Shown: positions 12,156-64,000, numbered from the stretch's first letter. The stretch: 64,000 nucleotides of DNA from Christensenellaceae bacterium (GCA_963667795.1 OY764017.1:1261329-1325328), one strand, 5' to 3'. Notes: a model not told the origin generated them from the letters alone. A program made the numbers and translations.

Positions 12156-12167
12156 GTTGTTTCCTCC

Positions 12168-14701: not shown

Positions 14702-14869
14702 AGCAGCGCATTTTGAAAACCGGCGTGCATTTTTAAAAACATTGTAAAAATAACGTCCCGTTTGATTGACACCCCTGCAAGGCATGTGTTAATGTGATAA
14801 AAGCAAGTCAGAACCGCGGTGACACTGCTTCAAAAAACGTTTGAAAATTTAATTTTGGAGAGATGCATT

Positions 14870-21702: not shown

Positions 21703-21738
21703 GTTGCTCACCTTTTGTGCCTGTAACATTGCGGCACC

Positions 21739-28750: not shown

Positions 28751-28964
28751 TGTTCCTTTTCCCTCTCCTTATTTTTGTTTGCGTGGGTAACCGACACCTT
28801 TGGCGTATATCTCCAGTATTGATAACAGGATTATACTTGCCTTTTGATTGCTAAAATTATATATTGTAATCAAAACATCAAAAAGGACATCTGTCCACAT
28901 TCAAAATATATTTATTCAGTCGCTGTTAAAGACCATTCAGCTGCAGGAAGAGAGGGACACCGCC

Positions 28965-29740: not shown

Positions 29741-29768
29741 TTCTGAAAAGGAATAATTGGATGAAGGT

Positions 29769-29947
29769 ATCGGGAGAGACTGCATGATTGCAGCGCCGAA
29801 GGTGAATGCGCAAAAAACTCTCAGGTAAACGGACCGATGCCCGACAAAGCTTTGGAAAGCCGACTGATCGGTCGGCACCGACGAGGCAATTCTGCGTAAG
29901 TGCAATCATGGCTGCGCGGAAGAATCTTTCAGGTTGAAATACAGGGC
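29769..29947 (+). promoter_or_regulatory. tandem glycine riboswitch (two aptamers)
   Basis: Aptamer 1: ATCGGGAGAG...CGCCGAAGG...CTCTCAGGTAAACGGACCGAT. Aptamer 2: GGAAAG...CACCGACGAGGCAA...CTTTCAGGTTGAAATACAGGGC. Both carry the GGAGAG / ACCGAAGG / CTCAGG..GGAC consensus blocks. Confidence 0.9.
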
Positions 29948-30039: not shown

Positions 30040-31413
30040 ATGGTATTTGACTTAATCGTACTCGGCGGTGGACCGGCCGGTTATCTTGCCGGTGAGCGGG
30101 CAGGCCAGGCCGGATTTTCGGTTTGTTGCATGGAAGAGCGCTGCGTCGGCGGCGTGTGTCTCAATGAAGGGTGCATTCCCACAAAGACACTCCTTTATTC
30201 CGCAAAAATCTTTGATAACGCTTCGTTGGGTGCTAAATATGGCGTAACGGCGGAAAGCCTTGCAATCGACCATGCAAAGGTGATCGCCCGCAAAAACAAA
30301 GTTGTAAGAACGCTTGTTGCCGGTGTTAAATCTGCGCTGAAGGCCAACCACGTCACCATCGTAGAAGCACGCGGCGTCATCGCGGGGCGCGTCGACGGCG
30401 GCTATACGGTGAAAGCCGACGGCGAAACATATGTTGGCAAACGCTTGTTGATTGCAACGGGATCGTCTCCTGCGATCCCGCCGATCCCCGGGCTTAAGGA
30501 CGGTCTTGAAAGCGGATTTGTCTGCACCAACCGCGAAATCCTCGCGTTAACTGAAAAGCCGGAAAGTCTCGTGGTGATCGGCGGCGGCGTGATCGGGCTT
30601 GAGCTTGCCGGTTACTTTGCGTCAATCGGTACAAAGGTGACCATAATCGAAATGCTTGACCATGTTGGCGGAGCCAATGACCCGGAACTTGTCGATATCC
30701 TAAAAAAACACTTTGAAAAACGCGGCGTAACGTTCCATCTTTCCGCTAAGGTCACGGAGTTGACGGCAAACGCCATAAAATATGAACAAGATGGAGTGAT
30801 CAGCGAAGTTACCTGCGACAAGGTGCTGCTTTCCATCGGGCGCCGTGCCAATACGCATGACATAGGCCTTAAAAACATCGGTGTATTGACGGAGCGAGGC
30901 GCTGTCATCACCGATGAACATATGAAAACAAACCAACCGGACGTATACGCGGCCGGAGACGTTAACGGAAAGTCTATGCTTGCCCACACGGCGTACCGCG
31001 AGGCGGAAGTTGCCGTCAACACAATGCTCGGCAAGCAGGACATGATGCGTTACAATGCGGTTCCCGGCGTAATCTATACGAATCCCGAGCTGTCCTCCGT
31101 CGGTGAAACGGAACAATCCGCAAAACAAAACGGACTGGACGTGTCCGTCGTAAAACTGCCGATGCGGTTTTCCGGTCGCTACCTTGCCGAGAACGAAGGC
31201 GGCAACGGCATCATGAAACTCGTCGTCGAAAACGGTACAAAAAAAGTGCTCGGCGCGCAGGTGCTCAGCAACTACTCCAGTGAATTCATCGTAACCGTCG
31301 GCACGTTCATTGAACTCGGCCTGACGGTAGACGCGATCAAAAAGATCATATTCCCGCATCCGACGGTTGGCGAAATCATTCGCGAGGCAGCGTTTGTGGG
31401 GTCGGAAATATAA
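30040..31413 (+). CDS. lpd: dihydrolipoyl dehydrogenase (E3 / glycine-cleavage L-protein)
   Basis: 457 aa. FAD motif VLGGGPAGY, redox disulfide CLNEGCIPTK and C-terminal HPTVGE. GGGAGGAA RBS. Confidence 0.9.
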   Translation: MVFDLIVLGGGPAGYLAGERAGQAGFSVCCMEERCVGGVCLNEGCIPTKTLLYSAKIFDNASLGAKYGVTAESLAIDHAKVIARKNKVVRTLVAGVKSALKANHVTIVEARGVIAGRVDGGYTVKADGETYVGKRLLIATGSSPAIPPIPGLKDGLESGFVCTNREILALTEKPESLVVIGGGVIGLELAGYFASIGTKVTIIEMLDHVGGANDPELVDILKKHFEKRGVTFHLSAKVTELTANAIKYEQDGVISEVTCDKVLLSIGRRANTHDIGLKNIGVLTERGAVITDEHMKTNQPDVYAAGDVNGKSMLAHTAYREAEVAVNTMLGKQDMMRYNAVPGVIYTNPELSSVGETEQSAKQNGLDVSVVKLPMRFSGRYLAENEGGNGIMKLVVENGTKKVLGAQVLSNYSSEFIVTVGTFIELGLTVDAIKKIIFPHPTVGEIIREAAFVGSEI

Positions 31414-35718: not shown

Positions 35719-36708
35719 TTAAGCGTGGGCAGACAAAAACTGCACCAGCCGCTTCATGGCTTCGCTTGCTTCATCCAGCTTAAAGTTGCGCTGGTATTCA
35801 TGCCAGAGTTTTGCTTGATCGGACGTTGGCAGATAGTCTGTCACATCGATCCCGTTTGCATGCAACACGTCCAGCATTTCATTTGCCTGTGTGATAAACG
35901 GGTCTTCGTCTCCGCAGGTGATGAACACCGCAGGATAGTCCCTTGTCACGAACGCAACTGTGTTCAAGCGCTGTGCCGCGGGCGTGCCTTCATAATGCTT
36001 TTCGCCGGTCATCATCCAAACCGAATCCGCAATCAGCGGAAATCCGGTAGCGCGGAGCGTGTCTATATTATAGTATCCGCAGAGCAGGACCACTCCGCGG
36101 AGCTGTTCGGCAGTCATGGCGGGTTCGTCGCCGATTCCGGCACAAAATTCCGTGTTTGTGTAGTATAGTCCCATCTGCGATGCAAGATGTCCGCCCGCGC
36201 TGTCCCCCGCAATGAACACGTTTGCCGGGTCGATCCCATACTCGTCCGCACGTGCAAGCAGATACGAAATCGCCTCGTTCACTTGTATCATCTGCGTGGG
36301 ATATCGTCCCTCCGGTGCAAGCTCATAATTGATGCTGGCAACGACGAACCCGTATGACGCGAGCTTTTGGCAATAGTACGTGAAGTCTTCCTTGTCGTCG
36401 CCCACGTAATACCCGCCGTGTGCATACAAAACAAGCGGCTGCACTTCTTCGGATTGTTTTGCGTAAACGTCCATCACGCCATTGTCAAACCGGCTTTCAT
36501 AGGAAACGTCCGTGTCCAGCGTGTCGACAATGGCCAGCACGTCCGCATAGTCCTCCGGCTGAATGCCCGCATTACCCGCACAGATGATTCGTATGATCGT
36601 CTTCTGCAAAATCGTCGTGCTCGACCAGGTAACGGCCGCGCCCGCCGCCAGCACAAGCACCACGGCAAGAATGATGAACCAAACACGTTTATAAACCGGT
36701 TTTTTCAT
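35719..36708 (-). CDS. membrane-anchored alpha/beta hydrolase (esterase/lipase)
   Basis: Track ORF 35719..36717. Start at ATG 36708 (MKKPVYKR). N-terminal TM helix, oxyanion motif YAHGGYY and nucleophile GDSAGGH. Confidence 0.75.
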   Translation of the reverse strand: MKKPVYKRVWFIILAVVLVLAAGAAVTWSSTTILQKTIIRIICAGNAGIQPEDYADVLAIVDTLDTDVSYESRFDNGVMDVYAKQSEEVQPLVLYAHGGYYVGDDKEDFTYYCQKLASYGFVVASINYELAPEGRYPTQMIQVNEAISYLLARADEYGIDPANVFIAGDSAGGHLASQMGLYYTNTEFCAGIGDEPAMTAEQLRGVVLLCGYYNIDTLRATGFPLIADSVWMMTGEKHYEGTPAAQRLNTVAFVTRDYPAVFITCGDEDPFITQANEMLDVLHANGIDVTDYLPTSDQAKLWHEYQRNFKLDEASEAMKRLVQFLSAHA

Positions 36709-36923
36709 TGTGTACACTCCGTTGTTCTATATTTTTATGAAATTGTTTTAACGGGATTTTTTGTATCGCTTTCATTCCATCCACTTCCCTTTCATCATAA
36801 AAGCGAATCCGTCCAAAGTCAACGTACCGTAATTGTGTTTCTCCACTGCGTTTGATATACTGCGCTCATAATTGCAATTCGGTCGTTTCCGGGTTTCCCG
36901 GCGGCCGTGGGAGGGATTTTGCG

Positions 36924-40265: not shown

Positions 40266-41576
40266 TTATAAACGCTCGGATGCTCTGCGGTCATGCGGTT
40301 GCCAAGGGCGATCGATTTGCCGCGCAAACTTGGCGGCAACGACCGGCGGAGTCATGTCCGAATACAGTCTGCGCACCTCTTCAAAATCGACCGAATCTTC
40401 CTTGTGTTTCAGGGAGAATTCCACAAACCGTTGTGTATCGTCCGGATCGGGCGTTTCTTTTTCGCGTATGTTGAGCGTCAGCGGATACGGACCCAGATAG
40501 CGTTTCGCCGTGTCGTTTTCCAGCGGATGGACATTAACAATCGGCCTGCCCGCGGAAATATAGTCGAAAATCTTGCTCGGCGTTTGGTTGGTGCAGCGAT
40601 TGCCGAGGTTGATCAGCACGTCCGCCCAACACATCATGTTGAGGCACTCTCCCAAAGGCGCGCCGTCATACCAGTGAATATTCGGGTTCGTGTCCACATA
40701 TTGCTGCTTCAGCGCACGGTTTGCGCCATCGATATAGTTACAGACGATGTGAAACTGAAACCGGTCATCACATGCTTGTATCATTTGATAAAAATATGCC
40801 GGGTTGCGCACCGTGCTGCTAAAAAGGCTGCCGGTATAAACGCAGTTCATCTTTCCCTCTATGAAGCACGCCGGACGTTCTCCCTGAGGAAGCGGACGGA
40901 GGTTGGCAAACGCCACGGGGATCGTCTTTTTCCGGTACTTATCCAGTGGATGGCTCATATTGTCTTCATACAACTCCGGCGGCAAAAAGACGGCGTCCGC
41001 CATGCGGTAAATATCCATCTCCTTTTCCATCAGCGCTTCATATTGATCTGTGAGGCCGATGAACGTCGCGTGCGGATCGGTAAAATATGCAAACCAGGAC
41101 AATTCGTTCAGCAGTCCGGCTTCCGCCAGCGCAAGTGCGTCCCGCTGCGGTATGATGGGCGCAGAAGCCGTTATTAGTGCCTTGTAGCGCTCGCCCGCAA
41201 GGCGCTGCACCAGCGCTTCTCGAACCGGGTATTCCGTCAAAATCCGTTCCAGTCGAGACCTTGTAAACAGCGCATGCATCAATCGCCAAACGGTTCGTTT
41301 CAGCGGCGCAAGCGGCGCTTTGACGTTTTCGATACTGTTGTCCATAATGCCAAACATTTTTCGGACAAAACGTTCCAACAGTTTACGCCTAAACCGATAC
41401 ACCCGCATGCCTTCATAACATTCCATCGCGGGCAGGTTCCGCTGGTAATCACATGTGAAAACATCTACGTCGTATGTCTTGCACAACTCCTTCAAAACGG
41501 GCTTTAACACATTTGTGTTGGCATTTTCATGGGGGTGAAAAAAATACGAATATACCAGTATTTTTTCTTTATTCAT
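40266..41576 (-). CDS. GT-B-fold glycosyltransferase-like protein
   Basis: Track ORF 40266..41684. Start at MMNKEKILVYSYF (ATG 41579/41576) after AGGAGA. The C-terminal SKIFDYISAGRPIVNV resembles the GT1/GT4 donor-binding region. Confidence 0.5.
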   Translation of the reverse strand: MNKEKILVYSYFFHPHENANTNVLKPVLKELCKTYDVDVFTCDYQRNLPAMECYEGMRVYRFRRKLLERFVRKMFGIMDNSIENVKAPLAPLKRTVWRLMHALFTRSRLERILTEYPVREALVQRLAGERYKALITASAPIIPQRDALALAEAGLLNELSWFAYFTDPHATFIGLTDQYEALMEKEMDIYRMADAVFLPPELYEDNMSHPLDKYRKKTIPVAFANLRPLPQGERPACFIEGKMNCVYTGSLFSSTVRNPAYFYQMIQACDDRFQFHIVCNYIDGANRALKQQYVDTNPNIHWYDGAPLGECLNMMCWADVLINLGNRCTNQTPSKIFDYISAGRPIVNVHPLENDTAKRYLGPYPLTLNIREKETPDPDDTQRFVEFSLKHKEDSVDFEEVRRLYSDMTPPVVAAKFARQIDRPWQPHDRRASERL

Positions 41577-41814
41577 CATTTCTCCTGTTGCTCCAGGTCT
41601 GATTACAAGACAACGCGTCCATGGTCCGGAGCACGATTTGAACGGATATTCAACATACTCTCTCCGCGCAGTTACGCTTGTCATACGAGAAATCCATGCC
41701 GATTATCAAGGTTTAGTATATCGATCATAATAAGAAAATGCAACAATGCATGATGCATGCGCCTTTGTAAGGTTAATTGTGTGTGCTGCAAAACAAAACG
41801 CTGTATCGGGGGAA

Positions 41815-51026: not shown

Positions 51027-52639
51027 CGTTTGTCTCCTCTGCGGTACTCGCTTGGCGTGCATCCCGAAACCTTTTTAAACACAAAACTAAAGTAATGCGA
51101 ATCCCGAAAGCCTACGGCAAACGCAATCTCGCTGGAGCGCATCTCCGTGTGACGCAGCATGCGCTTTGCCTCGGCGATACGCTTTCCCGTCAGGTATTCG
51201 ATAAACGTCTGCCCGACTTCTTGGCTGAACATTGCGGAAAAATAATTGGGGCTTATGTTCACCTTTTGGGCTACTTTGTCAAGCGAAATCGTCTCGTCCT
51301 GATAATGCTTGTCGATAAAGCCGATGGCCTGCACCAACAAGTCTCTCTGCTGTTTTTTGCTTTCATTGTCGCGCAGCTCCATCACGTGCTGCATCACACT
51401 GCGCAAATATGCGCGTGTTTCGTCCGGTTTGGATATATCGTCCGTCGGCCGGAGTTCCGACGGCCAGAAGCTGTCCGCATGGCAGCCGATCGAGTCGAGA
51501 TACTCCATCGCCGCAAAAAACACCGTCATAGTCAAAAACCGGCAGAACATAGGCATTAGCGCGGTTTCTTCGCCCGCGCTTTGCATCAGCTGCTCAATAA
51601 ACTGATCGATTTCTTCCGTTGTACCGCCGCTTAAAAAGCAGCGTACCAGTTGCTGGTCAATATCCCGCGTTCCTTTGTCCGCCGCGTTGCCGCCGATTTT
51701 ACGCATGTTTTGAATGCTTGTTTCGGAAAGGATGTGCTCCTCCGGGCAGATATAGCGATAGGACAGGATGCGGTTTGCTTCCGCAAAACATACGGGCAGC
51801 GCGCTGAGCCGTAAAACCGGCGTACCATAGGAAATGTGCCAGTTTGCCTCGCGGCCTGCGAGCTCGCAGAGTTGCTGAATGCTTGCAACGCATTCCAGCG
51901 TACGTTTCCCGACGTCCTCCCGTCCGCCTTTGATGAGCGCCGCGTGCGTCGTGATGTTCCAGCGGAACAGGATCAATTCCGGCTGGCTGACGAAAAACTG
52001 CGTCACCTTGTCCTGCGTTGCGGCAAGCGAGTCGGTGTATCCTTCCGGCGCACTGCCGTTGTATGCGGCGCTGTTGATTGAAAACAGCAGGATATTATAG
52101 GACGGCGCGTTCAGGTCAATGTCCATCGCTTTTGCGGTTTCGGATATCTCCGAAACACTCATGCCGCCGGTGACGACCTGCTCAAAAAAGCGCCTGCGGG
52201 AAAATACTTCATATTCCTGCGCCTCGCGCTGAAACATTGCAAGATAGTCGCGCTGCCGTTGCTCGGCTCCCATCTTTTTTTGCAGCGTGATGAGCAAATC
52301 CACCATCTTTTCCTTTATGATGGGCTTGAGCAGGTATTGTTCCACACCCATGCGGATTGCGCGCTGCGCAAACGCAAAATCATCGTAACCGCTGATAATA
52401 ACGATCTTTGTGCGCGGCAATTCCTTGCGGACCAGTTCGCTCAGCGCAAGTCCGTCCATAAACGGCATTTTGATGTCGGTAATCAACAAGTCGGGTTGAA
52501 TTTGGCGGATCAGCGGCAGCGCAAGTTCACCGTCGGGCGCGTCCCCGGCGTATAAAAAGCCGTATTGCTCCCAACTGATGTTTTTGCGTATACCTTCTCG
52601 TACTACGATCTCGTCTTCGACAAGAAAGACCTTGAACAT
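51023..52639 (-). CDS. response regulator with AraC-type HTH output (YesN type)
   Basis: Track ORF 51023..52663. Start at MFKVFLVEDE (ATG 52639) after GAAAGGAAG. REC domain ...DIKMPFMDG. C-terminal HTH IAFAVGFRDSHYFSFVFKKVSGCTPSEY. Confidence 0.85.
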   Translation of the reverse strand: MFKVFLVEDEIVVREGIRKNISWEQYGFLYAGDAPDGELALPLIRQIQPDLLITDIKMPFMDGLALSELVRKELPRTKIVIISGYDDFAFAQRAIRMGVEQYLLKPIIKEKMVDLLITLQKKMGAEQRQRDYLAMFQREAQEYEVFSRRRFFEQVVTGGMSVSEISETAKAMDIDLNAPSYNILLFSINSAAYNGSAPEGYTDSLAATQDKVTQFFVSQPELILFRWNITTHAALIKGGREDVGKRTLECVASIQQLCELAGREANWHISYGTPVLRLSALPVCFAEANRILSYRYICPEEHILSETSIQNMRKIGGNAADKGTRDIDQQLVRCFLSGGTTEEIDQFIEQLMQSAGEETALMPMFCRFLTMTVFFAAMEYLDSIGCHADSFWPSELRPTDDISKPDETRAYLRSVMQHVMELRDNESKKQQRDLLVQAIGFIDKHYQDETISLDKVAQKVNISPNYFSAMFSQEVGQTFIEYLTGKRIAEAKRMLRHTEMRSSEIAFAVGFRDSHYFSFVFKKVSGCTPSEYRRGDKR

Positions 52640-52977
52640 TGGATCTTCCTTTCTAAAGGACATGTCAATTTTATCATAAAAAGTACATGTTCATATTAAA
52701 TTAAGATGTGTAAACTTCTCCAGTTAAACTCTATTGTGTCCTATTATACGATAATATCCAATAGGTTTTCTTTCGTTTTTGGTTTGATTTTTTATTCAAC
52801 TGCAAACCCGCTTCGTTTTATTACGGCAAAAGACCCGTTCCCGCAGGAGCGATGAGCGTGCGTCGTTTCTGTCGCGTTTTCCGGCGCGGCGTACAAAACA
52901 GGCCGAAACATGCGTTTTTTGCCGACCATGCGCGAAATAATCCAACAAAAAACATAAGAATTCACACTGTTTTTATG

Positions 52978-53007
52978 TTGATGCATCCGCCTTTTTTGAA
53001 ATATGAT
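52978..53007 (+). promoter_or_regulatory. candidate araB-araD promoter
   Basis: TTGATG (52978..52983), 18 nt, then TATGAT (53002..53007). Confidence 0.4.
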
Positions 53008-53101
53008 ACATATATCAAATCAACTCTTTTGCCTGGCGCGCAGCAAAGCATGCGCGCTGCACGGCAAGAATCCAAGAATCAACGAACTTCGAGGGCTTGT
53101 T

Positions 53102-54706
53102 ATGATGCAAAACACCACCGGCGCCGCCGCGATCCGTGACGGCAAAACCTATCTCGGCATTGAGTTCGGCTCCACACGCATTAAGGCCGTGCTGATCGAC
53201 GAATCGCATGCCGTGCTCGCCTCCGGCAGCCACAACTGGGAAAACCGCCTGGAAGACGGCGTATGGACCTATTCGCTGGATGATATCTTCTCCGGTTTGC
53301 AGGACGCTTATCAAAAACTTTCCGCAAACGTAATGGATCAATACGGCGAAACGCTTACCCGGGTCGGCGCAATGGGCATTTCCGCCATGATGCACGGTTA
53401 TATGGCCTTTGATGCGGCGGGCAATCTGCTTGTGCCGTTTCGCACATGGCGAAACACCATGACGGGCCGGGCGGCAAAAGAGCTCTCTTCCTTCTTCGGC
53501 TTCAATATTCCGCAGCGCTGGAGCATTGCGCACCTGTATCAGGCCATGCTCAATAAAGAACCGCACGTAACGTCCGTTTCGTTTCTCACAACGCTTGCCG
53601 GCTATATCCACTGGCGGCTTACGGGTGAAAAGCTGATCGGCGTCGGCGACGGCTCCGGCATGTTCCCTGTTGACAGCGCGGCGCTTTGCTACGACGGGAC
53701 CATGGCCGCGACGTTCCAACAGCTTGCGGACAAATACGGCTGCGGCTGGAAACTTCTGGACATCCTTCCGCGGCTATTACCCGCGGGTGCGCAGGCCGGT
53801 CGGCTGACGCCGGAAGGCGCGGCGCTTCTCGATCCCGAGGGTAAACTGCAGCCCGGCATTCCCATGTGCCCGCCGGAAGGCGACGCGGGTACGGGGATGG
53901 TCGCGACCAACAGCGTCCGCAAGCGCACGGGTAACGTCAGCGCGGGTACGAGCGTATTCGCCATGCTGGTGATGGAGCGTCCGCTCTCGCGTTCGTATCC
54001 GGAGGTAGACTTGGTAACCACGCCGTCGGGCGATCCTGTCGCAATGGTGCACTGCAACAATTGCACAAGCGACGTCGACGCGTGGATTCGTCTCTTTGGC
54101 GAGGCAGCGAGTGTACTCGGCGCATCGTTCGACGAACGCACGCTGTATCGAACCCTCTACAAACAGGCACTGCTAGGCGTGCCGGACTGTGGCGGGCTCA
54201 TCACATACAACTATCTTTCCGGCGAACACGTCACCGGGCTGGACGAAGGCCGCCCGTTGATGCTGCGCAGGCCGGACACAGCGTTTACGCTTGCAAACGT
54301 CATGCGCGCGCATCTGACCTCCGCCTGCGCTTCGCTGCGCATCGGCATGGATATACTTGCCGCCGAACAGGTGGAGCTGGATGCAATGACAGGACATGGC
54401 GGCTTCTTCAAGGTTGAAGGCGTCGGTCAAACCATCATGTCCGCTGCGCTCGGTACCCCGATCACCGTTATGGAAACCGCGGGCGAAGGCGGCCCCTGGG
54501 GCATGGCTGTCCTCGCGGCCTATATGCAAAACCGTGCTGCAGACGAATCACTTTCGGATTATCTGGAACAGCGCGTCTTCATGGACGCAAAATGTACAAC
54601 CGTCTCCGCCACCGATGCGGATTCGGCGGGCTATGCGTCATTTATGGAAGATTACAAGCGCTGCCTCGCGCTGGAGCGGTCGGCGGTACAGTTAACGAAA
54701 GACTAG
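53102..54706 (+). CDS. araB: FGGY-family pentulose kinase, probable L-ribulokinase
   Basis: Track ORF 53003..54706. Start at MMQNTTG (ATG 53102) after GAGGG. N-terminal [17 protein letters not shown]. The function is inferred from its position next to araD and divergent from the araA operon. Confidence 0.7.
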
Positions 54707-54719
54707 AGAGGATGGACCG

Positions 54720-55415
54720 ATGCTTGAAGCGCTCAAACAGCAGGTTCTCGAAGCGAACCTAAAATTGCCACAGCTGAATCTTGTTGCGTTCACGTGGGGA
54801 AACGTCAGTGGAATCGACCGCGGAAGCGGTGTCATGGTCATAAAGCCCTCCGGCGTTGCCTATGCGGATATGAGCGCGGATCAGATGGTCTGCGTCGATC
54901 TTCAAAGCGGCGCGGTCGTGGAGGGCGACTACCGCCCATCTTCGGACACGCCGACGCATATCGCACTCTACCGTGCGTTTCCGCAAATCGGCGGAGTCGT
55001 TCACACACACTCCCGCTGGGCAACCATCTTCGCGCAGGCTGGCCGCGCCATCCCGGCGCTCGGCACCACGCATGCGGATTATTTTTACGGCGATGTTCCC
55101 GTTACGCGCCCGCTGACAAACGAAGAAATTGCAGGCGCATACGAAATGGAGACCGGCAATGTCATCGTGGAGACTATGAACAACGTCGATCCCGTCGCAA
55201 TGCCCGCCATTTTGGTACGGGAGCACGGCCCGTTTACCTGGGGCAAAGACCCGGCCGAGGCAGTCTATCATGCCGCCGTGCTGGAGGAAGCCGCCATGAT
55301 GGCCTGGCACACAATCGGGCTTGTTGCGGACGTGCAGCTCAATCCCGCACTGCTGGACAAGCATTATTTGCGCAAGCACGGCAAAAACGCCTATTATGGG
55401 CAGGACAAGCATTAA
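54720..55415 (+). CDS. araD: L-ribulose-5-phosphate 4-epimerase
   Basis: 231 aa. [30 protein letters not shown] and [11 protein letters not shown] (class II aldolase/epimerase signatures). Confidence 0.9.
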
Positions 55416-55691
55416 GCATATCGCTCTACTCCATTCCCATTGGTCCTTACCGGAGAAACCGAAGTTGGTGGCTTACTGGTGTCTCCAGATAATCGCGATA
55501 GAGTATCCTCTCCTCTTCCTCAAGCGCCGCCGATCAAAGCCTGAAAACAACCTGAAAGATTCCTTTCGGGCAAAATTCAGCAAAAGGCGGTATCCTCCAG
55601 TTGTTGAAACCAAGCAAGCCAACCGGGTGGTGGCCGGAGCGGCAAGCGGTATCAGCAACAGCATTTTTTCATTTTTTCCTTCCTTTGATGA

Positions 55692-55722
55692 AACGCCGCG
55701 CTAGAGCACGCGGCGTTTTGTC
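55692..55722 (+). terminator. intrinsic terminator about 280 nt downstream of araD
   Basis: Nine-bp stem AACGCCGCG/CGCGGCGTT with an 8-nt loop, followed by TTGTCTG. Confidence 0.55.
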
Positions 55723-55847
55723 TGTCGAAAAATATCCGAGGATGTTAAAATCGTAATCCGTAACGTAAAAACCCCCGGCTATATCGGCTCATCCGGCGTA
55801 ACGCTCTCGCTCGTTTCAGTCGGTTCGACGCCGCAGTTTCGGAATTC

Positions 55848-55856
55848 TGCTATAAT
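55848..55856 (+). promoter_or_regulatory. extended -10 promoter element (TGcTATAAT)
   Basis: TGCTATAAT at 55848..55856. No good -35 element. About 40 nt upstream of the metallophosphoesterase start. Confidence 0.45.
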
Positions 55857-55895
55857 AGCCACAAACACGGCGATTACGCCGCAAGGAGGTTTTTG

Positions 55896-57029
55896 GTGCA
55901 CGATAAACGAACCCGCAACGTCATGTTGATTGCAATAACGCTGATCGGCCTTACCTTCGGCTGCTGGCTGTATGCCTGGCTGTCCGGCGTTTTATCCTAT
56001 TGGGGTGCAGGCATGACCACGTCCCGCTGGATTGCCGTGGCGGGTGCAATTCTCGCGCTCAGCACATTCTTTATTCGCCCCATACCAATCAAGGTTACGA
56101 CAATCGCCGCAATCTATCTCATTATCTTCAGCTTTTTTGCATGGTTGGTACAAAAGATACTGACCGGCGTTTGGCCATCCATGGCGGCATCCGGCTGGTT
56201 CTGGCAAGGCGGAATAGCGGCGCTTGTATGCTCCGCCGGTATGCTGATCTACGGTGTGGTTCACGGCAGGCGCATGATCGTCAAGCGCTACACGCTGTGT
56301 ACGTCCTTGCCCGTTCCCGGCGGCGAGTTGCGCATTGCGTTGATTTCGGACGTCCATATGGGACTGACGATCGATGCAAACCGGCTCCGGCAACAGATGG
56401 ATCGTTTGGCGGAAGAAAAGCCGGATTTGCTCGTCATCGCGGGCGATTTGGTGGACGATCAAACAACACCCGAACAGATGTGCGCCGCCTGTACCGTCGT
56501 CGGCAGTCTATCGACTAAATATGGCGTCTACTTTGCATATGGCAATCACGATTTGGCAAGCCACGGACCAACGCCGCCTTATACGAAGGCGGAGCTTGAC
56601 GAAGCCCTGACAAACGCAAATGTTCACATTCTGGACGATGCACATATCATCGCCGCAGGCATAACCCTCGTCGGTCGTCACGATGCCGCTTTTGCACGAC
56701 ATGCAGACCGTGCTCCACTCGACCGGCTGCTAGACGGAGTTGATATGACCAAACCGGTCATACTGATCGACCATCAGCCGCGTGAATTGAAAGAAGCCGC
56801 TGCCGCAGGCGTAACCTTGCAGCTCAGCGGGCACACGCATGCAGGACAGGTCTGGCCGATGAGTCGGCTCAGTCGGTTGTTTGGCTTTGCCTACGGACAC
56901 AAACGTATCGGCGGCATGGACGCGATCGTAACCTCCGGCATGGGCAATCGCGGCTCCGTGCTACGCAGTGGCTGCACAGCGGAAATGGTGCTGATCAGCC
57001 TGCGCGACACTGCGTCCGATATGGAGTAA
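55896..57029 (+). CDS. membrane-anchored metallophosphoesterase (calcineurin-like)
   Basis: Track ORF starts at TTG 55893. GTG 55896 is better spaced from AAGGAGG. N-terminal TM segments. Motifs LISDVHMG, GDLVDD, GNHD and GHTHAGQ. Confidence 0.8.
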   Translation: MHDKRTRNVMLIAITLIGLTFGCWLYAWLSGVLSYWGAGMTTSRWIAVAGAILALSTFFIRPIPIKVTTIAAIYLIIFSFFAWLVQKILTGVWPSMAASGWFWQGGIAALVCSAGMLIYGVVHGRRMIVKRYTLCTSLPVPGGELRIALISDVHMGLTIDANRLRQQMDRLAEEKPDLLVIAGDLVDDQTTPEQMCAACTVVGSLSTKYGVYFAYGNHDLASHGPTPPYTKAELDEALTNANVHILDDAHIIAAGITLVGRHDAAFARHADRAPLDRLLDGVDMTKPVILIDHQPRELKEAAAAGVTLQLSGHTHAGQVWPMSRLSRLFGFAYGHKRIGGMDAIVTSGMGNRGSVLRSGCTAEMVLISLRDTASDME

Positions 57030-57055
57030 CCGCATCTAGCACGATACACGCATAT

Positions 57056-57083
57056 AAAAAACGGCCTTTCAGCCGTTTTTTTT
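57056..57083. terminator. bidirectional terminator between convergent genes
   Basis: AAAAAACGGC-CTTTCA-GCCGTTTTTTTT. Confidence 0.6.
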
Positions 57084-57096
57084 ATATTGTATTGAT

Positions 57097-58446
57097 TTAG
57101 TGGATCGTCGTCCTGTCTCTGCCGGATTTTTTTGAACGGTACATCGCCTCGTCCGCGTTTTTGATCAGCTCCCCTTCTTCCTTGATCGACGTCTCAGGGA
57201 ACGCATCGCACCCAGAGCTGATCGTTATGCGGATACAGTTATTGCCATACGCCGTATGGTTCTCCGACACAATGTGCCGGATACGCTCCGCAATTGAGAA
57301 CGTATCTTCTTTTGCCGCACCCGGCAGGATCAAAACGAATTCCTCTCCTCCGAATCGCATCAGCACGTCGCCGTCCCGCATGCCCTGTCGGATCTGACAC
57401 GCCAAATTTTTCAGCACCCGGTCGCCGACGACATGCCCGTAGGTATCGTTGATGCGCTTAAAATGATCGATATCCAGCATAATGACACCGAGCGGGATGT
57501 CTTTGCGAACCGATCGCACGTACTCTTCGTGCAGGCGTACCATACCGAAACGACGATTGAGCACCCCCGTCAGCGGATCCAGTGCCGCCAGCTTTTGCAG
57601 CTGTTCGTGGTCAAATGCGTTATGCAGCGCAACCGCAAGACTCTGCGTAAAAATCGGCATCTTCTTGAGGTTTTCCGCGCCGAACGGATCCGCCTTTGCC
57701 AGCAGGATGACCGCAATCGGAACATTTTTGTACAGTATGGGTTCAATTAACACTTCGGACGGCAAAAACTGCGTCAGCGCACTGTTTACAACCACGTTTT
57801 TGGGGTAGCAGGTGTAGATACGCTCGCCCTTTGCAAATGCAGTAAGGATGTTCTCGTTGGTTTCGAGGCCTTTTGCCTCACGGATTCCCGCCGATTGCAA
57901 CAGCCGGATCTCGCCGTCCTGATCGGCGAGGATCGCGCCCGCGTCCGCATGCGTACTGCTGCGTGCCAGATTCAGCGCCTGTTCGGCAAGGGACTGTAAA
58001 TCCAGTTGACAGGAAAACGTTGCAGTGAACGACTTGATCTCGTCCAGCGTCCGCAGCGAGCTTGCAAACGCCGCAATCAGCTCGTTAAACGCCTGTGCGC
58101 TGCTGCCGAATTCATCACATGTCTCCACGGGTACCGCACAGTGCTCCGGATTGCAGTCGGCAATGCTGCCGCTGTCCGAAACCGAGATGATCGTATCCTT
58201 TACTTCTTTCATCTTTGATGTGACGGCATGCAGTTTGTACTTTACGACCACGCGCGATATCGCGATATTGACAAAACCGACAAGGACGCCAGCTATCATG
58301 CACGATGCAATAAACCAGCTGCTCAACGCAATCTGCTGTGATACGCCGAGTAAAACCACAAAAAAAGGAAACACCATGCCGATCAGCAGCCCGAATCCCA
58401 TCATGTAGACAGCCAATCTTACAAATGTGTTTTTCTGACGTTTCAT
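57097..58446 (-). CDS. membrane-bound diguanylate cyclase (TM-linker-GAF-like-GGDEF)
   Basis: Track ORF 57097..58488. Start at MKRQKNTF (ATG 58446) after AAGGAG. Active site RFGGEEF, with I-site RDGD five residues upstream. Confidence 0.85.
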   Translation of the reverse strand: MKRQKNTFVRLAVYMMGFGLLIGMVFPFFVVLLGVSQQIALSSWFIASCMIAGVLVGFVNIAISRVVVKYKLHAVTSKMKEVKDTIISVSDSGSIADCNPEHCAVPVETCDEFGSSAQAFNELIAAFASSLRTLDEIKSFTATFSCQLDLQSLAEQALNLARSSTHADAGAILADQDGEIRLLQSAGIREAKGLETNENILTAFAKGERIYTCYPKNVVVNSALTQFLPSEVLIEPILYKNVPIAVILLAKADPFGAENLKKMPIFTQSLAVALHNAFDHEQLQKLAALDPLTGVLNRRFGMVRLHEEYVRSVRKDIPLGVIMLDIDHFKRINDTYGHVVGDRVLKNLACQIRQGMRDGDVLMRFGGEEFVLILPGAAKEDTFSIAERIRHIVSENHTAYGNNCIRITISSGCDAFPETSIKEEGELIKNADEAMYRSKKSGRDRTTIH

Positions 58447-58718
58447 GCTTGCTCCTTGTAAAAACAAATAATTTATATATATTATCACGCCGCCGTGTCA
58501 CATGCTAACAATCCATACTCGTAATACTGTGATTGGTTTTATTCAAAACGTCCTTTGTACGGCTTGTCTGTCGACACACTGCAAAAATTTTACATTGTTC
58601 GCTATATGGGAACGCATATGTCATATTTGGGAACATTTTGGTTGATATCCCTTGCCGCACAATGCTATGATTGTTTCGTAAAGAGCAAGTACTTCTCGTC
58701 CGAATTCGGTGATTGACA

Positions 58719-59495
58719 ATGACAAAAGACAACACGGCCCATGTGAAATCCATTGAGCGGGCACTTCTGCTGGTAGACGCTCTGGCTGAAGAACCGCGCG
58801 AGCATTCGCTGACCGAGCTCTCAAAAAAACTCGGTTGGCCAAAGAGCACCGTCCATGGCGTTCTGTCCACCCTGGTTCAGTACCGCTATGCGGAACAGTC
58901 CGATGAAACGGGCCGTTACCGTCTTGGCATCCGCTTTTTCGAGCTTGGGATCAAAGTCGGCAAAATGTGGGACATCCGCTCAATCGCCATTCCATACATG
59001 CAAAAGCTCAACACGGAACTTGGCGAAATGGTACAGCTCGGCACGGAAGACCGCGGTGAAATGCTGTATCTTGAAAAGCTGGATTCCACGCACCTGATCC
59101 GTATCGTATCCGAAATTGGCGGTCGGCTTCCGATTCACTGTACTGGTCTCGGCAAAGCTATTCTGGCATATATGCCGCCGCTCAAAGTCAAGCAGATCAT
59201 CCGTGAGCACGGGTTGACGTCCTATACCGCAAACACCATTACACACCCGGCCGCGCTGGAACGGGAACTGCAAAAAATCCGCGAACAGGGTTATGCGATC
59301 GACGATGGCGAAATTATGCTTGGCCTGCGTTGCGTCGCGGCGCCGATTTTCGATGGCAAGGGTCAGGTCAAGTATGCTTTAAGCATCTCCGGCATACAGA
59401 ACAATCTTGAAGGCGCGAGGCTGGAGCGCATTAAAAACCGCGTGGTCGAAACCGCTGCCGCAATCACAAAAACCCTCAAACGTACTAGTATTTAA
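58719..59495 (+). CDS. IclR-family transcriptional regulator
   Basis: Track ORF starts at TTG 58713. The first ATG is at 58719. HTH SLTELSKKLGWPKSTVHGVLSTL and a C-terminal IclR effector domain. Confidence 0.85.
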   Translation: MTKDNTAHVKSIERALLLVDALAEEPREHSLTELSKKLGWPKSTVHGVLSTLVQYRYAEQSDETGRYRLGIRFFELGIKVGKMWDIRSIAIPYMQKLNTELGEMVQLGTEDRGEMLYLEKLDSTHLIRIVSEIGGRLPIHCTGLGKAILAYMPPLKVKQIIREHGLTSYTANTITHPAALERELQKIREQGYAIDDGEIMLGLRCVAAPIFDGKGQVKYALSISGIQNNLEGARLERIKNRVVETAAAITKTLKRTSI

Positions 59496-59584
59496 CGCCG
59501 CATCTACACAAAAACAAGCGGCTTGAAATTGGAATCTCCATCTATGGATTTTAAATATATCGCTTAAAAGGAGGCTTATAACAA

Positions 59585-60427
59585 ATGGAAAAAAGACCTG
59601 AAATTGCAAAATCGATTTTGACCGGCAGTTTTCAAACGAACTATCATGATGTTGGCAGTGGCTTCCCGCTGATCATGCTGCATGGTTCCGGCCCGGGCGT
59701 CTCTGCATGGGCAAACTGGAACCGGCTGTTCCCGCTGATGTCAAACGAGCATCATATCTATGCGCCGGACCTCGTGGGCTTCGGTTATACGGACCGTCCC
59801 GAAGGCATGAACTATAATATGGACGTCTGGGTCAAGCAGACGATCGATTTCATGGATGCGCTGAACATTGAACAGGCTGATATCATCGGCAATTCGTTCG
59901 GCGGCGCGCTGGCGATGGCACTGGCGATTCTCAAGCCGGAGCGCGTGCGCAAGCTCGTCCTTATGGGCAGCATGGGCGTTACTTTCCCGCTGACTTACGG
60001 GCTGGATCGCGTTTGGGGTTATCAGCCGTCGCTGACCAATATGCAGGAACTCATCGGCATCTTTGCCTATAATCGCAAAATGATGCCGCCGGAACTTGCA
60101 CAGGGTCGCTATGAAGGCAGCATCCAGCCGGGATTTCAGGAGAGCTTTTCATCCATGTTCCCGGAACCGCGTCAGGACGGCGTGGAAGCCATGGCGCAAT
60201 TTGAAATCTATCTCAAAGAGATTCGGCATCAAACGCTGATCGTACACGGACGTGAAGACCGCGTCATCCCGTTGTCAACTTCCATGAAGCTGATCGAGTC
60301 GATTGAAAACGCGCAGCTGCATGTGTTCGGCAAATGCGGGCATTGGACGCAGATCGAGCGCACACAAGAGTTTGCGGAAATCGTGCATACCTTCCTAACC
60401 ATCGACCCGCCGTATTCAAAGTCATGA
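59585..60427 (+). CDS. meta-cleavage product hydrolase (2-hydroxymuconate semialdehyde hydrolase, XylF/DmpD/MhpC type)
   Basis: 280 aa. MLHGSGPGVSAWANW, nucleophile GNSFGG, GREDRVIP and GKCGHWTQIE. Confidence 0.8.
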   Translation: MEKRPEIAKSILTGSFQTNYHDVGSGFPLIMLHGSGPGVSAWANWNRLFPLMSNEHHIYAPDLVGFGYTDRPEGMNYNMDVWVKQTIDFMDALNIEQADIIGNSFGGALAMALAILKPERVRKLVLMGSMGVTFPLTYGLDRVWGYQPSLTNMQELIGIFAYNRKMMPPELAQGRYEGSIQPGFQESFSSMFPEPRQDGVEAMAQFEIYLKEIRHQTLIVHGREDRVIPLSTSMKLIESIENAQLHVFGKCGHWTQIERTQEFAEIVHTFLTIDPPYSKS

Positions 60428-61215
60428 ACACAAGAGAGTTAAAGGCGACCATTCAGCTCTGCGCAGAAAGGCTGGAAAACGCCGAACGGCTTCGCATTCC
60501 AGTTTCGCCGTTGTCAAAAGACTTCCCCGCGCTGACGGTGGACGACGCATACGCCATTCAGGCACATAATGTCGACAGGCTCATTTCGCATGGCGCGACG
60601 ATCTCCGGTAAAAAGATTGGGCTGACCTCTCCGGGGATGCAGCAGCTCCTCGGTGTGAATGAGCCGGACTACGGCCATCTGTTCAGTTCTATGGAGTGCG
60701 ATTGCGAAGTATCTTCGGCGGAGTTGATTCAACCGAAGATTGAAGCGGAAATCGCGTTTGTGTTAAAGGAAGATCTGCCGGATCGCGAAGTGACGGTTGA
60801 GGACGTAAAAAACGCAACGGCATACGTCGTCGCCGCGTTTGAAATCGTCGACAGCCGTGTTGCGGACTGGAAGATCAAGCTCGTGGATACCATTGCGGAC
60901 AACGCTTCGTCCGCGCGGTATGTATTGGGCGATACTAGGCTCCCCATCGACGGGGTGGATTTGTCCGCCGTTACGATGACAATGGAAAAAGACGGCGAAG
61001 GATTGGTGAGCAAAGGCAGCGGCTCAGCCGTTATGGGCGATCCCGTAATCGCGGTCGCCTGGCTGGCAAACTGCATGCGCCGTTACGGTGTGCCGCTCAA
61101 AAAGGATGAGGTCTTATTGTCCGGCGCGTTCTGCGCCGCGTTGCCCGCAAACAAGGGCGATGTGTTCAAAGCAACTTTCTCGCAGCTTGGCACGGTAACG
61201 GCTCGTTTCGTGTAA
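60424..61215 (+). CDS. 2-oxopent-4-enoate (2-keto-4-pentenoate) hydratase (XylJ/DmpE/MhpD type)
   Basis: Track ORF 60334..61215. ATG 60424 overlaps the hydrolase stop (ATGA). Motifs GKKIGLTSPGMQQLLGVNEPDYGHLF and EAEIAFVL. Confidence 0.8.
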   Translation: MNTRELKATIQLCAERLENAERLRIPVSPLSKDFPALTVDDAYAIQAHNVDRLISHGATISGKKIGLTSPGMQQLLGVNEPDYGHLFSSMECDCEVSSAELIQPKIEAEIAFVLKEDLPDREVTVEDVKNATAYVVAAFEIVDSRVADWKIKLVDTIADNASSARYVLGDTRLPIDGVDLSAVTMTMEKDGEGLVSKGSGSAVMGDPVIAVAWLANCMRRYGVPLKKDEVLLSGAFCAALPANKGDVFKATFSQLGTVTARFV

Positions 61216-61309
61216 AGCAACTTCAACCACAACAAACCTCGCTTCCCCTCAAGTGCCGTAAAACACATGCGGCAGGCAGGTTTGTTTTCTATACCTTAAA
61301 ACAAGGCAG

Positions 61310-62203
61310 GTGACGAAATTGAGCAAGATCAAAGTAGCCGTAATCGGTCCGGGTAACATCGGCAGTGATTTAATGTATAAAATCATGCGGAGTGATTATC
61401 TGGAGATGGCGATGATGGCAGGAATTGTGGAATCCGAAGGTATACGCCGTGCGGCGGGCCTCGGCGTTCCGGTTTCCATTCAGGGCGTTTCGGCGGTCGT
61501 GCAAAACCCCGAAATCAAGATAGCCTTTGACGCAACCAGTGCAACCGCACACGAAAAGATCAACGGCCCCGCGCTGAAACAGGCCGGTATTATAGCGGTG
61601 GACCTTACCCCCGCCGCAGTCGGACCGTACTGCGTACCCAGCGTCAATCTTGAAGAACTCAAAACTGCAGACAATATCAACATGGTAACCTGCGGCGGAC
61701 AGGCAACCATTCCCATCGTCAATGCGATCCATCGCGTTGCGGGTGTGGAATATGCCGAAATCGTTGCGGCGATCGCTTCCAAGAGCGCCGGGCCGGGTAC
61801 ACGTGCCAATATGGACGAATTTACCGAAACAACAAGCCGTGCGCTGGAAGTCGTCGGTATGGCAAAAAAAGGGAAAGCAATCATCGTCCTGAACCCTGCC
61901 GAGCCGCCGATCAATATGACGGATACCGTTTTGGTACGCGTTGCAGACAAAACCGTACCGTTTGAAACGATTCGCGACTCCATTTTGCAGATGGTCGAGC
62001 AAGTGCAAACCTACGTTCCAGGTTATCGCCTGCGCGTACCGCCGCAGATGGACGGTGATAAGGTGTCCGCCGTCGTGCAGGTGCAAGGACAGGGTGACTT
62101 CCTTCCCACCTTTGCGGGCAATCTCGATATTATAAATGCCGCGGCAATTGCGGTAGCGGAAAAAATAGCACAGGAACTGCTGAAAGGAGGCGATGCACAA
62201 TGA
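61310..62203 (+). CDS. acetaldehyde dehydrogenase (acylating; DmpF/MhpF/XylQ type)
   Basis: [17 protein letters not shown], with catalytic Cys in [12 protein letters not shown]. Start is GTG 61310 or TTG 61319. Confidence 0.85.
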
Positions 62204-63204
62204 AGCTGCAAATCGTCGACGCTACCCTGCGGGACGGCAGCCATGCCGTACGCCATTCCTTCACCGCCGAGCAGGCGCGGAGCATTTCGGAGCGGCTGGA
62301 CCGCTGCAATGTGCCGATCATCGAAGTCAGCCACGGCGACGGGCTGGGCGGCTCCAGCTATACGTATGGTTTTTCCAAGGAAGATCCGTTTTCACTGATT
62401 GAGGCAGCTGCCGGAGCAGTCAAACAGGCGAAGATCTCCGTTCTGCTGTTGCCGGGCATCGGCACCATTGCGGATCTGGCGCGCGCAAAGGACTGCGGCG
62501 CGTCAATCGTCCGCGTCGCCACCCATGTTACAGAGGCGGACATCAGCGCACAGCATATTCAGGCGGCAAAATCCATGGGACTCATGGCCGTCGGCTTTCT
62601 GATGATGGTACACATGCTTGATCCGGATGGAATTGCCGAACAGGCAAAAAAGATGGAATCCTATGGTGCGGATTACATCAACCTTGCGGATTCTGCGGGC
62701 GCGCTGTTGCCGGAACAGGTGAAAGAGCGGATTGAAGCCGTTCGTGCTTCGGTTAAGATACCGGTCGGCTTCCATGCGCACAACAACCTCAGCCTGGCCG
62801 TTGCCAACTCGCTTGCCGCCGCTGATGCGGGCGCCACATATATCGACGCAACGCTGCGTGGACTGGGCGCCGGGGCGGGCAACACGCAAATCGAAGTGCT
62901 CACAGGTGTTTTACAGCGCAAAGGGATTGACACCGGGCTGGACCTATATGGCCTGCTCGACGCTTCCGAACAAACAGTCGCGCCCATCATGCTGCGTCCG
63001 CAGATCATCGACAGCGGCTCGCTCATGCTCGGTTACGCTGGTGTGTACTCCAGCTTTCTTCTGCACGTCTACAACGCCGCGGAAAAATATAATCTGGAGC
63101 CACGCGACATCCTCATGGAAGTCGGCAAGCGTAAAATGGTCGGCGGTCAGGAGGATCTGATCATCGATGTTGCTTACAGCCTCAAGCAATCGAGGAGCGC
63201 CTGA
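62200..63204 (+). CDS. 4-hydroxy-2-oxovalerate aldolase (DmpG/MhpE/XylK type)
   Basis: 334 aa. [11 protein letters not shown] and [15 protein letters not shown]. The ATG overlaps the dehydrogenase stop (ATGA). Confidence 0.9.
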
Positions 63205-63206
63205 CT

Positions 63207-63500
63207 TTGGGCGCGCGCTATAACATTACCCTCGCTTCAGGGGAAACTTTTCCCTGCGGCACGGAGGACGAAAGCGTACTTGCCGCCATGCGGCGGGCAA
63301 ACGTTGGACCGATCAAAAGCGGTTGCTTCGGCGGTGGCTGCGGCATTTGCAAAATGCGCGTCACGTCCGGCTCCTACCGAAGGTTTAAACCGATGAGCCG
63401 CGCACATGTATCCGAACAGGAACAACAAAACGGCGTCGTATTACTTTGCTGTATTCGCCCGACAAGCGACCTGACGCTGGCCCCCGTTAACGATATGTAA
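63207..63500 (+). CDS. plant-type [2Fe-2S] ferredoxin, XylT/DmpQ-like
   Basis: 97 aa. TTG start 9 nt after GAGGAG. Cys cluster CFGGGCGICK plus a downstream LLCC. Sits immediately upstream of the extradiol dioxygenase, as in xylT-xylE. Confidence 0.65.
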   Translation: MGARYNITLASGETFPCGTEDESVLAAMRRANVGPIKSGCFGGGCGICKMRVTSGSYRRFKPMSRAHVSEQEQQNGVVLLCCIRPTSDLTLAPVNDM

Positions 63501-63572
63501 AGAATAGTCTGTAAGAGCCTGAAAAGTTTGGCCTTCTTGCCGGCCACTAAATAAAAAGGAGAGATAAACACT

Positions 63573-64000
63573 ATGGCACTCAATCAAACCCTGAGACCCG
63601 GCCTGATTCAGCTGCGGGTGCTGGACCTGGACAAAACGTTGGAATTTTACAAAAACATTCTCGGTTTGGACGAGGTCGCCCGTACGGCGGACGGCCGTGT
63701 TTGCCTGAAAACCTACGACGAGTTTGACCACCACTCGGTCACCCTGCGCAAAGCCGATGAGGCGGGCGTGGACTCCGTAGCGTTCAAGGTAGACTCAGAA
63801 GAGACGCTCGATCGTATGGCGAAGGAAACCGAAGCCTTTGGCTATCCGGTTACGGAAGTCCCCGCCAACACGGATCAGCCGGGCTTTGGCCGTCGTTTCC
63901 GTTTCACAATCTCGACCGGTCATGTGTTCGAGCTCTATGCAACGGTCGATCTCGCGCCGAAGCACCCCGGCCTTCTCAATCCGGATATCTGGGAAGAACA
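63573..64000 (+). CDS. catechol 2,3-dioxygenase (type I extradiol, VOC fold); 3' end beyond the window
   Basis: Not in the ORF track because it is open at the window edge. ATG 63573 follows AAAGGAGAG. My translation: MALNQTLRPGLIQLRVLDLDKTLEFYKNILGLDEVART...DEFDHHSVTLRKADEAGVDSVAFKV... Confidence 0.75.
   Translation, partial: MALNQTLRPGLIQLRVLDLDKTLEFYKNILGLDEVARTADGRVCLKTYDEFDHHSVTLRKADEAGVDSVAFKVDSEETLDRMAKETEAFGYPVTEVPANTDQPGFGRRFRFTISTGHVFELYATVDLAPKHPGLLNPDIWEE

Follow-up and report, generated by a model that had tools for sequence, protein, structure and literature searches.

Extradiol ring cleavage is usually read as a marker of aerobic aromatic degradation. Here we describe a catechol meta-cleavage operon that lies at positions 58719-64000, the very end, of a 64,000-nucleotide stretch of metagenome-derived DNA (OY764017.1:1261329-1325328 of assembly GCA_963667795.1). 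This whole stretch is referred to as the window, and positions are counted from its first letter.

Organization of the operon

The operon consists of seven co-directional genes on the plus strand. The first encodes an IclR-family transcriptional regulator (58719..59495; Pfam HTH_IclR and IclR_C). It is followed by an alpha/beta-fold hydrolase of meta-cleavage products, of the type acting on 2-hydroxymuconate semialdehyde or 2-hydroxy-6-oxo-dienoates (59585..60427; Pfam Abhydrolase_1), a probable 2-oxopent-4-enoate hydratase of the XylJ/DmpE/MhpD type (60424..61215; Pfam FAA_hydrolase), an acylating acetaldehyde dehydrogenase of the DmpF type (61319..62203; Pfam AcetDehyd-dimer, TIGR03215) and a 4-hydroxy-2-oxovalerate aldolase of the DmpG type (62200..63204; Pfam HMGL-like and DmpG_comm, TIGR03217). 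A XylT/DmpQ-like plant-type [2Fe-2S] ferredoxin of 97 aa (63207..63500; Pfam Fer2) and a catechol 2,3-dioxygenase (C23O; TIGR03211) complete the set; the dioxygenase gene is cut by the window end, so that its N-terminal 142 codons are present (63573..64000).

An ATGA overlap at 60424-60427 joins the hydrolase stop to the hydratase start, a second one at 62200-62203 joins the dehydrogenase stop to the aldolase start, and the aldolase stop is separated from the ferredoxin start by 2 nt. The gene order, the strand and both overlaps had been given in an earlier note on this DNA, made by a model from the sequence alone, and were confirmed by the listing of open reading frames (ORFs) and by the raw sequence; the family labels of that note agree with the Pfam and NCBIfam matches.

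The most likely start of the IclR gene is ATG 58719, as the earlier note also had it; this agrees with the gene call on L001, an independent contig described below, and TTG 58713 is an alternative ORF start. For the dehydrogenase, the most likely start is TTG 61319 rather than GTG 61310, from which the longest ORF runs; TTG 61319 gives a protein beginning MSKIKVAV, in agreement with the L001 call and with PDB 7z3s. A search around the IclR gene for an operator-like inverted repeat found nothing convincing, and the promoter and terminator scans are to be taken as weak evidence only. The IclR protein, which stays below all NCBIfam equivalog cut-offs, is presumed to be the regulator of the operon.

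The dioxygenase and its ferredoxin

The complete dioxygenase was obtained from L001, an independent ENA metagenome contig found by an exact-protein look-up of the aldolase. L001 is 98.9% identical to window positions 52199-64000 and is therefore taken to come from the same species; it shares the cassette junctions with the window and encodes, at its positions 11374-12300, a full-length C23O of 308 aa. The N-terminal 142 aa present in the window score 138 bits on TIGR03211, the catechol 2,3-dioxygenase model. For the full-length protein the score rises to 351 bits, above the cut-off of 320, whereas the HpaD model gives 188 bits and the biphenyl-diol (BphC) model 72 bits. The protein is 44% identical to PDB 3hpv, which we take to be the alkylcatechol enzyme LapB, 41% to XylE (1mpy) and 40% to the C23O on the plasmid of Burkholderia vietnamiensis G4, the last being the comparison that bears on a possible place in the hypoxia-adapted C23O subfamily I.2.C, which is marked by a low Km for O2.

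His154, His215 and Glu266 align with the iron ligands of XylE, and His200, His247 and Tyr256 with its second-sphere residues; all of them are invariant in an alignment of 14 members of the clade. With a 2-His-1-carboxylate Fe(II) site and a score above the catechol 2,3-dioxygenase cut-off, the protein is a type I extradiol dioxygenase. The earlier note had named a lack of these ligands in the part of the enzyme beyond the window as something that would speak against its reading; the L001 protein keeps His/His/Glu.

It had also been suggested that genes for ring hydroxylation lie beyond position 64000. L001 instead has a terminator-like hairpin after the C23O gene, followed by Hpt, cold-shock, zinc-finger and DegV genes, and no ring-hydroxylating oxygenase was found downstream on L001 or in the 58 kb upstream.

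The best plasmid matches of the ferredoxin in tblastn (43-46% identity) are ferredoxins encoded directly upstream of C23O on pCT14 and pBVIE04; the homologue on pBVIE04 of B. vietnamiensis G4 is 45% identical and that on pCT14 43%. A Cys-x4-Cys-x2-Cys...Cys pattern is seen in the sequence, for which there is no specific curated model. As a small Fer2 protein encoded immediately upstream of C23O, here and also in related loci, it corresponds to XylT/DmpQ in sequence and position, and the original reading of it as XylT-type stands. It is presumed to reactivate oxidised C23O.

The lower-pathway enzymes

Together with C23O, the dehydrogenase and the aldolase pass the curated thresholds of their families. 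On TIGR03215 the dehydrogenase reaches 424 bits (cut-off 282); it matches PDB 7z3s (324 bits) and DmpF (1nvm_B, 301 bits), and keeps the segment CGGQATIP, presumably the seat of the catalytic Cys. With 500 bits on TIGR03217 (cut-off 286), the aldolase contains the DmpG_comm communication domain and aligns end to end with DmpG (1nvm_A, 363 bits), with RDGSH, HAH and GVYSSFL kept. Both proteins thus lie above their equivalog cut-offs, are encoded by overlapping genes and match the A and B chains of 1nvm, as befits a DmpG/DmpF-type pair.

The hydrolase is 58% identical to Pseudomonas CumD over 266 residues (PDB 2d0d/1iun, 355 bits). It keeps the segments GNSFGG, hgreD and cgHW in the CumD alignment, which we take to be the seat of the CumD Ser/Asp/His triad, and on these two grounds it is a meta-cleavage hydrolase. 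Its closeness to the enzyme of a Pseudomonas cumene degrader far exceeds that of the C23O to proteobacterial structures (41-44%). The top PDB match of the hydratase is the 2-oxopent-4-enoate hydratase 8ih6_A at 202 bits, with the decarboxylase NahK at 147 bits. No XylG/H/I-type genes were found in the cassette, in the scanned window ORFs or among the L001 downstream gene calls; for this reason the pathway comprises the hydrolytic branch only, in keeping with its first description as the hydrolytic branch of a xyl/dmp-type meta pathway.

Distribution of the cassette

Homologues of the C23O number more than 1,100 at E <= 1e-20. Of the top 120, which are at least 70% identical, those with an organism name belong to Fusibacter paucivorans and to genomes of Oscillospiraceae, Peptococcaceae, Synergistaceae, Clostridiales, Eggerthellaceae, Spirochaetaceae and Ruminococcaceae. 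In a genome scan in which each GTDB species was represented by a single genome, 183 relatives were confirmed, and the locus counts given here cover the best 80. By record label, 57 of these loci belong to Bacillota, 19 to Spirochaetota (termite-gut Treponema and relatives), 3 to Synergistota and 1 to Actinomycetota. Christensenellaceae, Oscillospiraceae, Lachnospiraceae, Peptococcaceae, Erysipelotrichaceae and Synergistaceae are among them, as are the isolates Lacrimispora xylanisolvens DSM 3808, L. defluvii and Fusibacter paucivorans DSM 12116, a human-gut Lachnospiraceae genome, Mediterraneibacter, Solobacterium and Hungatella. Lacrimispora and Fusibacter are anaerobic genera. No typical aerobe occurs among the best 80 loci, all of which come from lineages known as anaerobes. 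The earlier note had called a full meta pathway unexpected in such a host, a view that is not supported: this cassette occurs widely among lineages known as anaerobes and has been reported previously. A species-level match was absent from the genome scan, the closest cassettes (L007 and L021) having 81-83% DNA identity.

According to tblastn with all seven window proteins, the five enzyme genes are compact and in the window order in 61 of the 80 loci. The IclR gene is directly upstream in 44 of these 61, and never in Spirochaetota loci; the ferredoxin was detected in 54. Most of the loci outside the 61, Synergistaceae apart, are cut by contig ends. The three Synergistaceae loci are rearranged, in the order IclR, hydrolase, ferredoxin, C23O, hydratase, dehydrogenase, aldolase.

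A few loci differ individually. The dehydrogenase and aldolase genes are displaced in two Treponema/Spirochaetaceae loci. F. paucivorans DSM 12116 has the IclR, hydrolase, ferredoxin and C23O genes together, with hydratase, dehydrogenase and aldolase absent within 10 kb on either side. Two termite-gut Clostridiales metagenome-assembled genomes (MAGs) have a solitary C23O homologue with no cassette alongside (L037 and L070), and the MAG of L037 holds the full cassette on another contig, L039. The C23O match in L048 (6861-7992) extends over 1,132 nt versus 924, with an ORF of 364 aa, which may be due to an insertion or to a MAG assembly error.

In a neighbour-joining tree rooted on two proteobacterial C23Os, which is indicative only, the 80 C23Os form one clade on a long branch, and the Treponema, Synergistaceae and Actinomycetes sequences nest among those of Clostridia. 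The window species nests inside this anaerobe clade as well; having the same gene set and order and a C23O within the clade of at least about 66% identity, its operon is an example of the anaerobe-associated cassette. The nesting at phylum level argues for past horizontal spread, and the data suggest that termite Treponema may have acquired the whole cassette, C23O included, from Clostridia. No other locus shares flank synteny with the window, and no accessory gene (hydroxylase, decarboxylase, transporter) is recurrently linked across the 80 loci, the commonest flank family being a generic ABC ATPase (7 of 80). The cassette is therefore seen as a self-contained module in varying contexts.

Proposed function and substrate

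We consider it likely that the operon is functional, probably under IclR control, and that through it a fermentative Clostridia host uses trace O2 as a co-substrate to open the ring of catechol or small alkyl-catechols. All pathway steps are drawn from homology to characterised xyl/dmp enzymes. O2 would be a co-substrate, that is a reagent only, and not a respiratory acceptor. The Fe(II) C23O would cleave the ring beside the two hydroxyls to 2-hydroxymuconate semialdehyde or its 6-alkyl ketone analogue, with the XylT-like ferredoxin re-reducing the iron after oxidation. The CumD/XylF-type hydrolase would then release formate (or a short acid) and 2-oxopent-4-enoate, which the hydratase would convert to 4-hydroxy-2-oxovalerate; the aldolase would split this into pyruvate and acetaldehyde, and the dehydrogenase would turn acetaldehyde into acetyl-CoA with formation of NADH. 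Pyruvate, acetyl-CoA and NADH would feed fermentation. Because no ring-hydroxylating enzyme is linked, the substrate is presumably imported as ready-made catechol, for example from plant phenolics. Catalysis by these enzymes, their true substrate, the part played by O2 and the ligand of the regulator are inferred here, and microaerobic aromatic catabolism appears to be the best functional reading.

Several points weigh against it. No gene for a catechol source or a transporter is linked, either among the L001 downstream calls or in the locus flanks. The hydrolase reaches no NCBIfam equivalog cut-off, and the top NCBIfam match of the hydratase, dmpE, scores 270 bits, under its cut-off of 409 bits; the decarboxylase model dmpH gives 209 bits, likewise under its equivalog cut-off. 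The anaerobiosis of the host we infer from the labels of its relatives and from gene context. Finally, CumD, the closest solved relative of the hydrolase, acts on alkyl-substituted cleavage products, and unsubstituted catechol may not be the main substrate.

A different account would have a substituted catechol from plant or host phenolics as the substrate, such as 3- or 4-alkylcatechols or possibly 2,3-dihydroxyphenylpropionate or homoprotocatechuate, and would place the chief value of the operon in detoxification and O2 removal, over carbon gain. We hold this account to be on the unlikely side. It draws on the 58% identity of the hydrolase to CumD, which acts on the cleavage product of 3-isopropylcatechol, on the presumed LapB as best structure match of the C23O, and on the presence of the hydrolytic branch alone, the branch which in the TOL pathway handles the ketone products of 3-substituted catechols. 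The account gains further weight from the ferredoxin, since a XylT is required chiefly when the catechol is substituted, and from two bifunctional feruloyl/acetyl-xylan esterase-like (BD-FAE-type) proteins encoded in the window. These esterase genes, however, are 20-37 kb off and unlinked to the operon, the full-length C23O passes the catechol 2,3-dioxygenase cut-off with the HpaD and BphC models far lower, and the lower pathway gives pyruvate and acetyl-CoA from any catechol. Under microaerobic catabolism, the reading we prefer, detoxification or O2 scavenging may be as important as carbon gain.

The host

Outside the operon, the window encodes CUT2 sugar ABC importers, a Bmp-type importer, a LytS/AraC-type (LytS/YesN) two-component pair, AraA, AraD, an FGGY kinase, ROK and GFO/IDH/MocA enzymes, DinB and PlsY, a content that bears out the sugar-fermenter-like Clostridia context recognised at first reading. 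Among the best 120 AraA homologues, all organism-named ones are Clostridiales, Clostridia, Eubacteriales and Saccharofermentanales MAGs, at no more than 75% identity. Bacillus and Paenibacillus, in whose relatives such clusters would be ordinary according to the earlier note, are absent from these 120. Since its named AraA relatives are all Clostridia/Eubacteriales-type MAGs, the host is assigned to an uncultured Clostridia lineage and is not regarded as a relative of Bacillus or Paenibacillus.

The same pathway might still serve ordinary aerobic catabolism if this host were a microaerophile or a facultative organism, and it may be said for this view that the evidence covers 64 kb of genome and that several Clostridia tolerate O2. 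We judge it improbable, given the Clostridia/Eubacteriales affiliation of every named AraA relative and the occurrence of the nearest cassettes in MAGs of Christensenellaceae, Oscillospiraceae and Eubacteriales and, among isolates, in Lacrimispora and Fusibacter; furthermore, the Pfam scan gave no match to an oxidase, a catalase or a respiratory protein in the window ORFs that it covered.

Selection and composition

By the Nei-Gojobori method with the closest relatives, dN/dS is about 0.03-0.2 for six of the genes and 0.01-0.04 for C23O, at synonymous differences of 0.5-0.75. All seven genes are thus under purifying selection at near-saturated synonymous divergence, and selection is strongest on C23O. 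The C23O is 98% identical in amino acids to those of Christensenellaceae MAGs, with a third-position identity of about 60%, a synonymous difference of about 58% and an omega of about 0.01. High protein identity combined with such low third-position identity indicates constraint and no recent exchange. Recent recombination of C23O with the Christensenellaceae MAGs was considered and rejected, its synonymous sites being as diverged as those of the neighbouring genes.

When L001 is compared with L002, L047, L021 and L007, its C23O finds its nearest counterparts in the Christensenellaceae MAGs (98% amino-acid identity). The other six cassette proteins, by contrast, resemble those of L021 and L007 (88-92%) more than those of the Christensenellaceae MAGs (67-90%). 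Synonymous divergence is similar across these comparisons, and the mismatch in affinity suggests unequal rates or an old mosaic rather than recent exchange.

This selection signature argues strongly that the dioxygenase is in use. It bears directly on the notion that the lower-pathway genes alone are used and that the dioxygenase is a decaying remnant, which might be entertained given that hydratase, aldolase and dehydrogenase serve O2-independent routes in other organisms. As constraint within the cassette is tightest on C23O, whose ligands are intact, such a relic is very improbable and already contradicted by the selection analysis.

The GC content at third codon positions, the codon usage and the tetranucleotide composition of the cassette fall within the range seen across the window as a whole: a deviation as large as that of the cassette, or larger, occurs in 12 of 41 codon blocks and in 10 of 54 tetranucleotide windows. 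No mobile-element gene was found near the cassette. The horizontal acquisition envisaged in the earlier note is thus not borne out as a recent event, recent transfer into this genome being rejected as a detectable signal because the composition lies inside the window's spread. That an aerobe's cluster was joined to an anaerobe contig by misassembly or contamination, as one might suspect from a metagenome-derived genome and a cluster at the window edge, is scarcely credible in view of the same upstream and downstream junctions in an independent ENA assembly at 98.9% identity, the matching composition, and the occurrence of the same cassette inside long contigs and Clostridia isolate genomes.

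Other features of the window

The two BD-FAE-type alpha/beta hydrolases are encoded at 20818-21729 and 35719-36717, both on the minus strand; they might free plant cell-wall phenolic acids, and a link to the catechol operon was not found. A glycine riboswitch (Rfam RF00504, 60 bits) at 29761-29846 on the plus strand lies directly upstream of the gene at 30040-31413, which scores 454 bits on TIGR01350, the equivalog model of dihydrolipoyl dehydrogenase, and so passes its cut-off. It is the sole Rfam match in the window, where no tRNA genes were found. A Crp/Fnr-type regulator gene is situated at 28848-29666. The gene at 18717-20792 on the minus strand encodes a 691-aa protein whose sole family match, to ADP-ribosylglycohydrolase, takes up the N-terminal 306 residues and leaves the C-terminal half unassigned; genes for a nucleoside hydrolase and for a Bmp-type ABC importer are its neighbours. 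For five long ORFs of 333-472 aa, Pfam gave no match at E <= 1e-5: 866-2251, 21739-22923 and 40266-41684 on the minus strand, and 14819-15820 and 17439-18473 on the plus strand.

Comparison with known systems

An intact and strongly constrained copy of the operon in fermentative Clostridia, with others in dozens of anaerobe lineages, supports the idea that 'strict anaerobes' may exploit trace O2 as a reagent, either for the formation of pyruvate and acetyl-CoA from plant catechols or for detoxification. This matters for the turnover of lignin and polyphenols in guts and digesters and for the reading of oxygenase genes in anoxic metagenomes. We put forward tentatively, with confidence a little short of even, that the cassette represents a distinct, anaerobe-specific and self-contained meta-cleavage lineage, spread over at least four phyla (Bacillota, Spirochaetota, Synergistota and Actinomycetota) and held under very strong selection. 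If true, O2-dependent, non-respiratory catechol fermentation where oxic and anoxic zones meet would be a trait common to gut and digester communities that has largely gone unnoticed, and the cassette dioxygenase may be tuned to very low O2. The gain from this particular window is modest, because standard annotation recognises the genes and two related cases have been published.

In enzyme families and chemistry the cassette is like the xyl/dmp pathway of aerobic Pseudomonadota (TOL xylTEFJQK and dmpQBDEFG; examples on pCT14 and pBVIE04). It shares with the operons of pCT14 and pBVIE04 a small ferredoxin gene directly upstream of C23O, and with the xyl/dmp pathway the DmpFG-type aldolase-dehydrogenase pair. 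Unlike xyl/dmp, it is without the branch of 2-hydroxymuconate-semialdehyde dehydrogenase, tautomerase and decarboxylase and without a linked phenol or toluene hydroxylase, and its order is reversed, with C23O last. The regulators of xyl/dmp operons are of the XylS/DmpR type, whereas that of the cassette is of the IclR type. The C23O is also just 40-44% identical and sits on a long separate branch, and the hosts of the cassette are Clostridia and other lineages known as anaerobes.

The first of the two related cases is that of Lucey & Leadbetter (2014), cited in PMC6486533 and PMC4824777 for C23O and other meta-cleavage genes in the 'anaerobic' Treponema primitia. It is alike in concept, a C23O and lower pathway in an organism grown as an anaerobe, and termite-gut Treponema MAGs carry the present cassette minus the IclR gene; unlike T. 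primitia, the host described here is a Clostridia bacterium. No match named Treponema primitia occurs among the best 120 matches to a termite Treponema C23O, and the T. primitia enzyme may belong to another lineage. O2-dependent ring cleavage is said to have been observed in that study.

Phrase searches of the literature for Clostridia and C23O gave just the second case, a 2023 paper on the cockroach hindgut, in which the Ruminococcaceae single-amplified genome A16 transcribes K00446, K10216, K02554 and K01666 (PMC10266427). The A16 genome (OttesenSCG-928-A16) has the same seven genes in the same order as the window, with a C23O that is 73% identical, in another family-level lineage and another habitat. 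Neither the need for O2 nor the ferredoxin nor the distribution of the cassette is taken up in that paper. While the phenomenon has therefore already been described in two related cases, and the functions of the genes are recognised by standard annotation, the present analysis adds how widely the cassette occurs across anaerobe lineages and how very strongly its dioxygenase is constrained.

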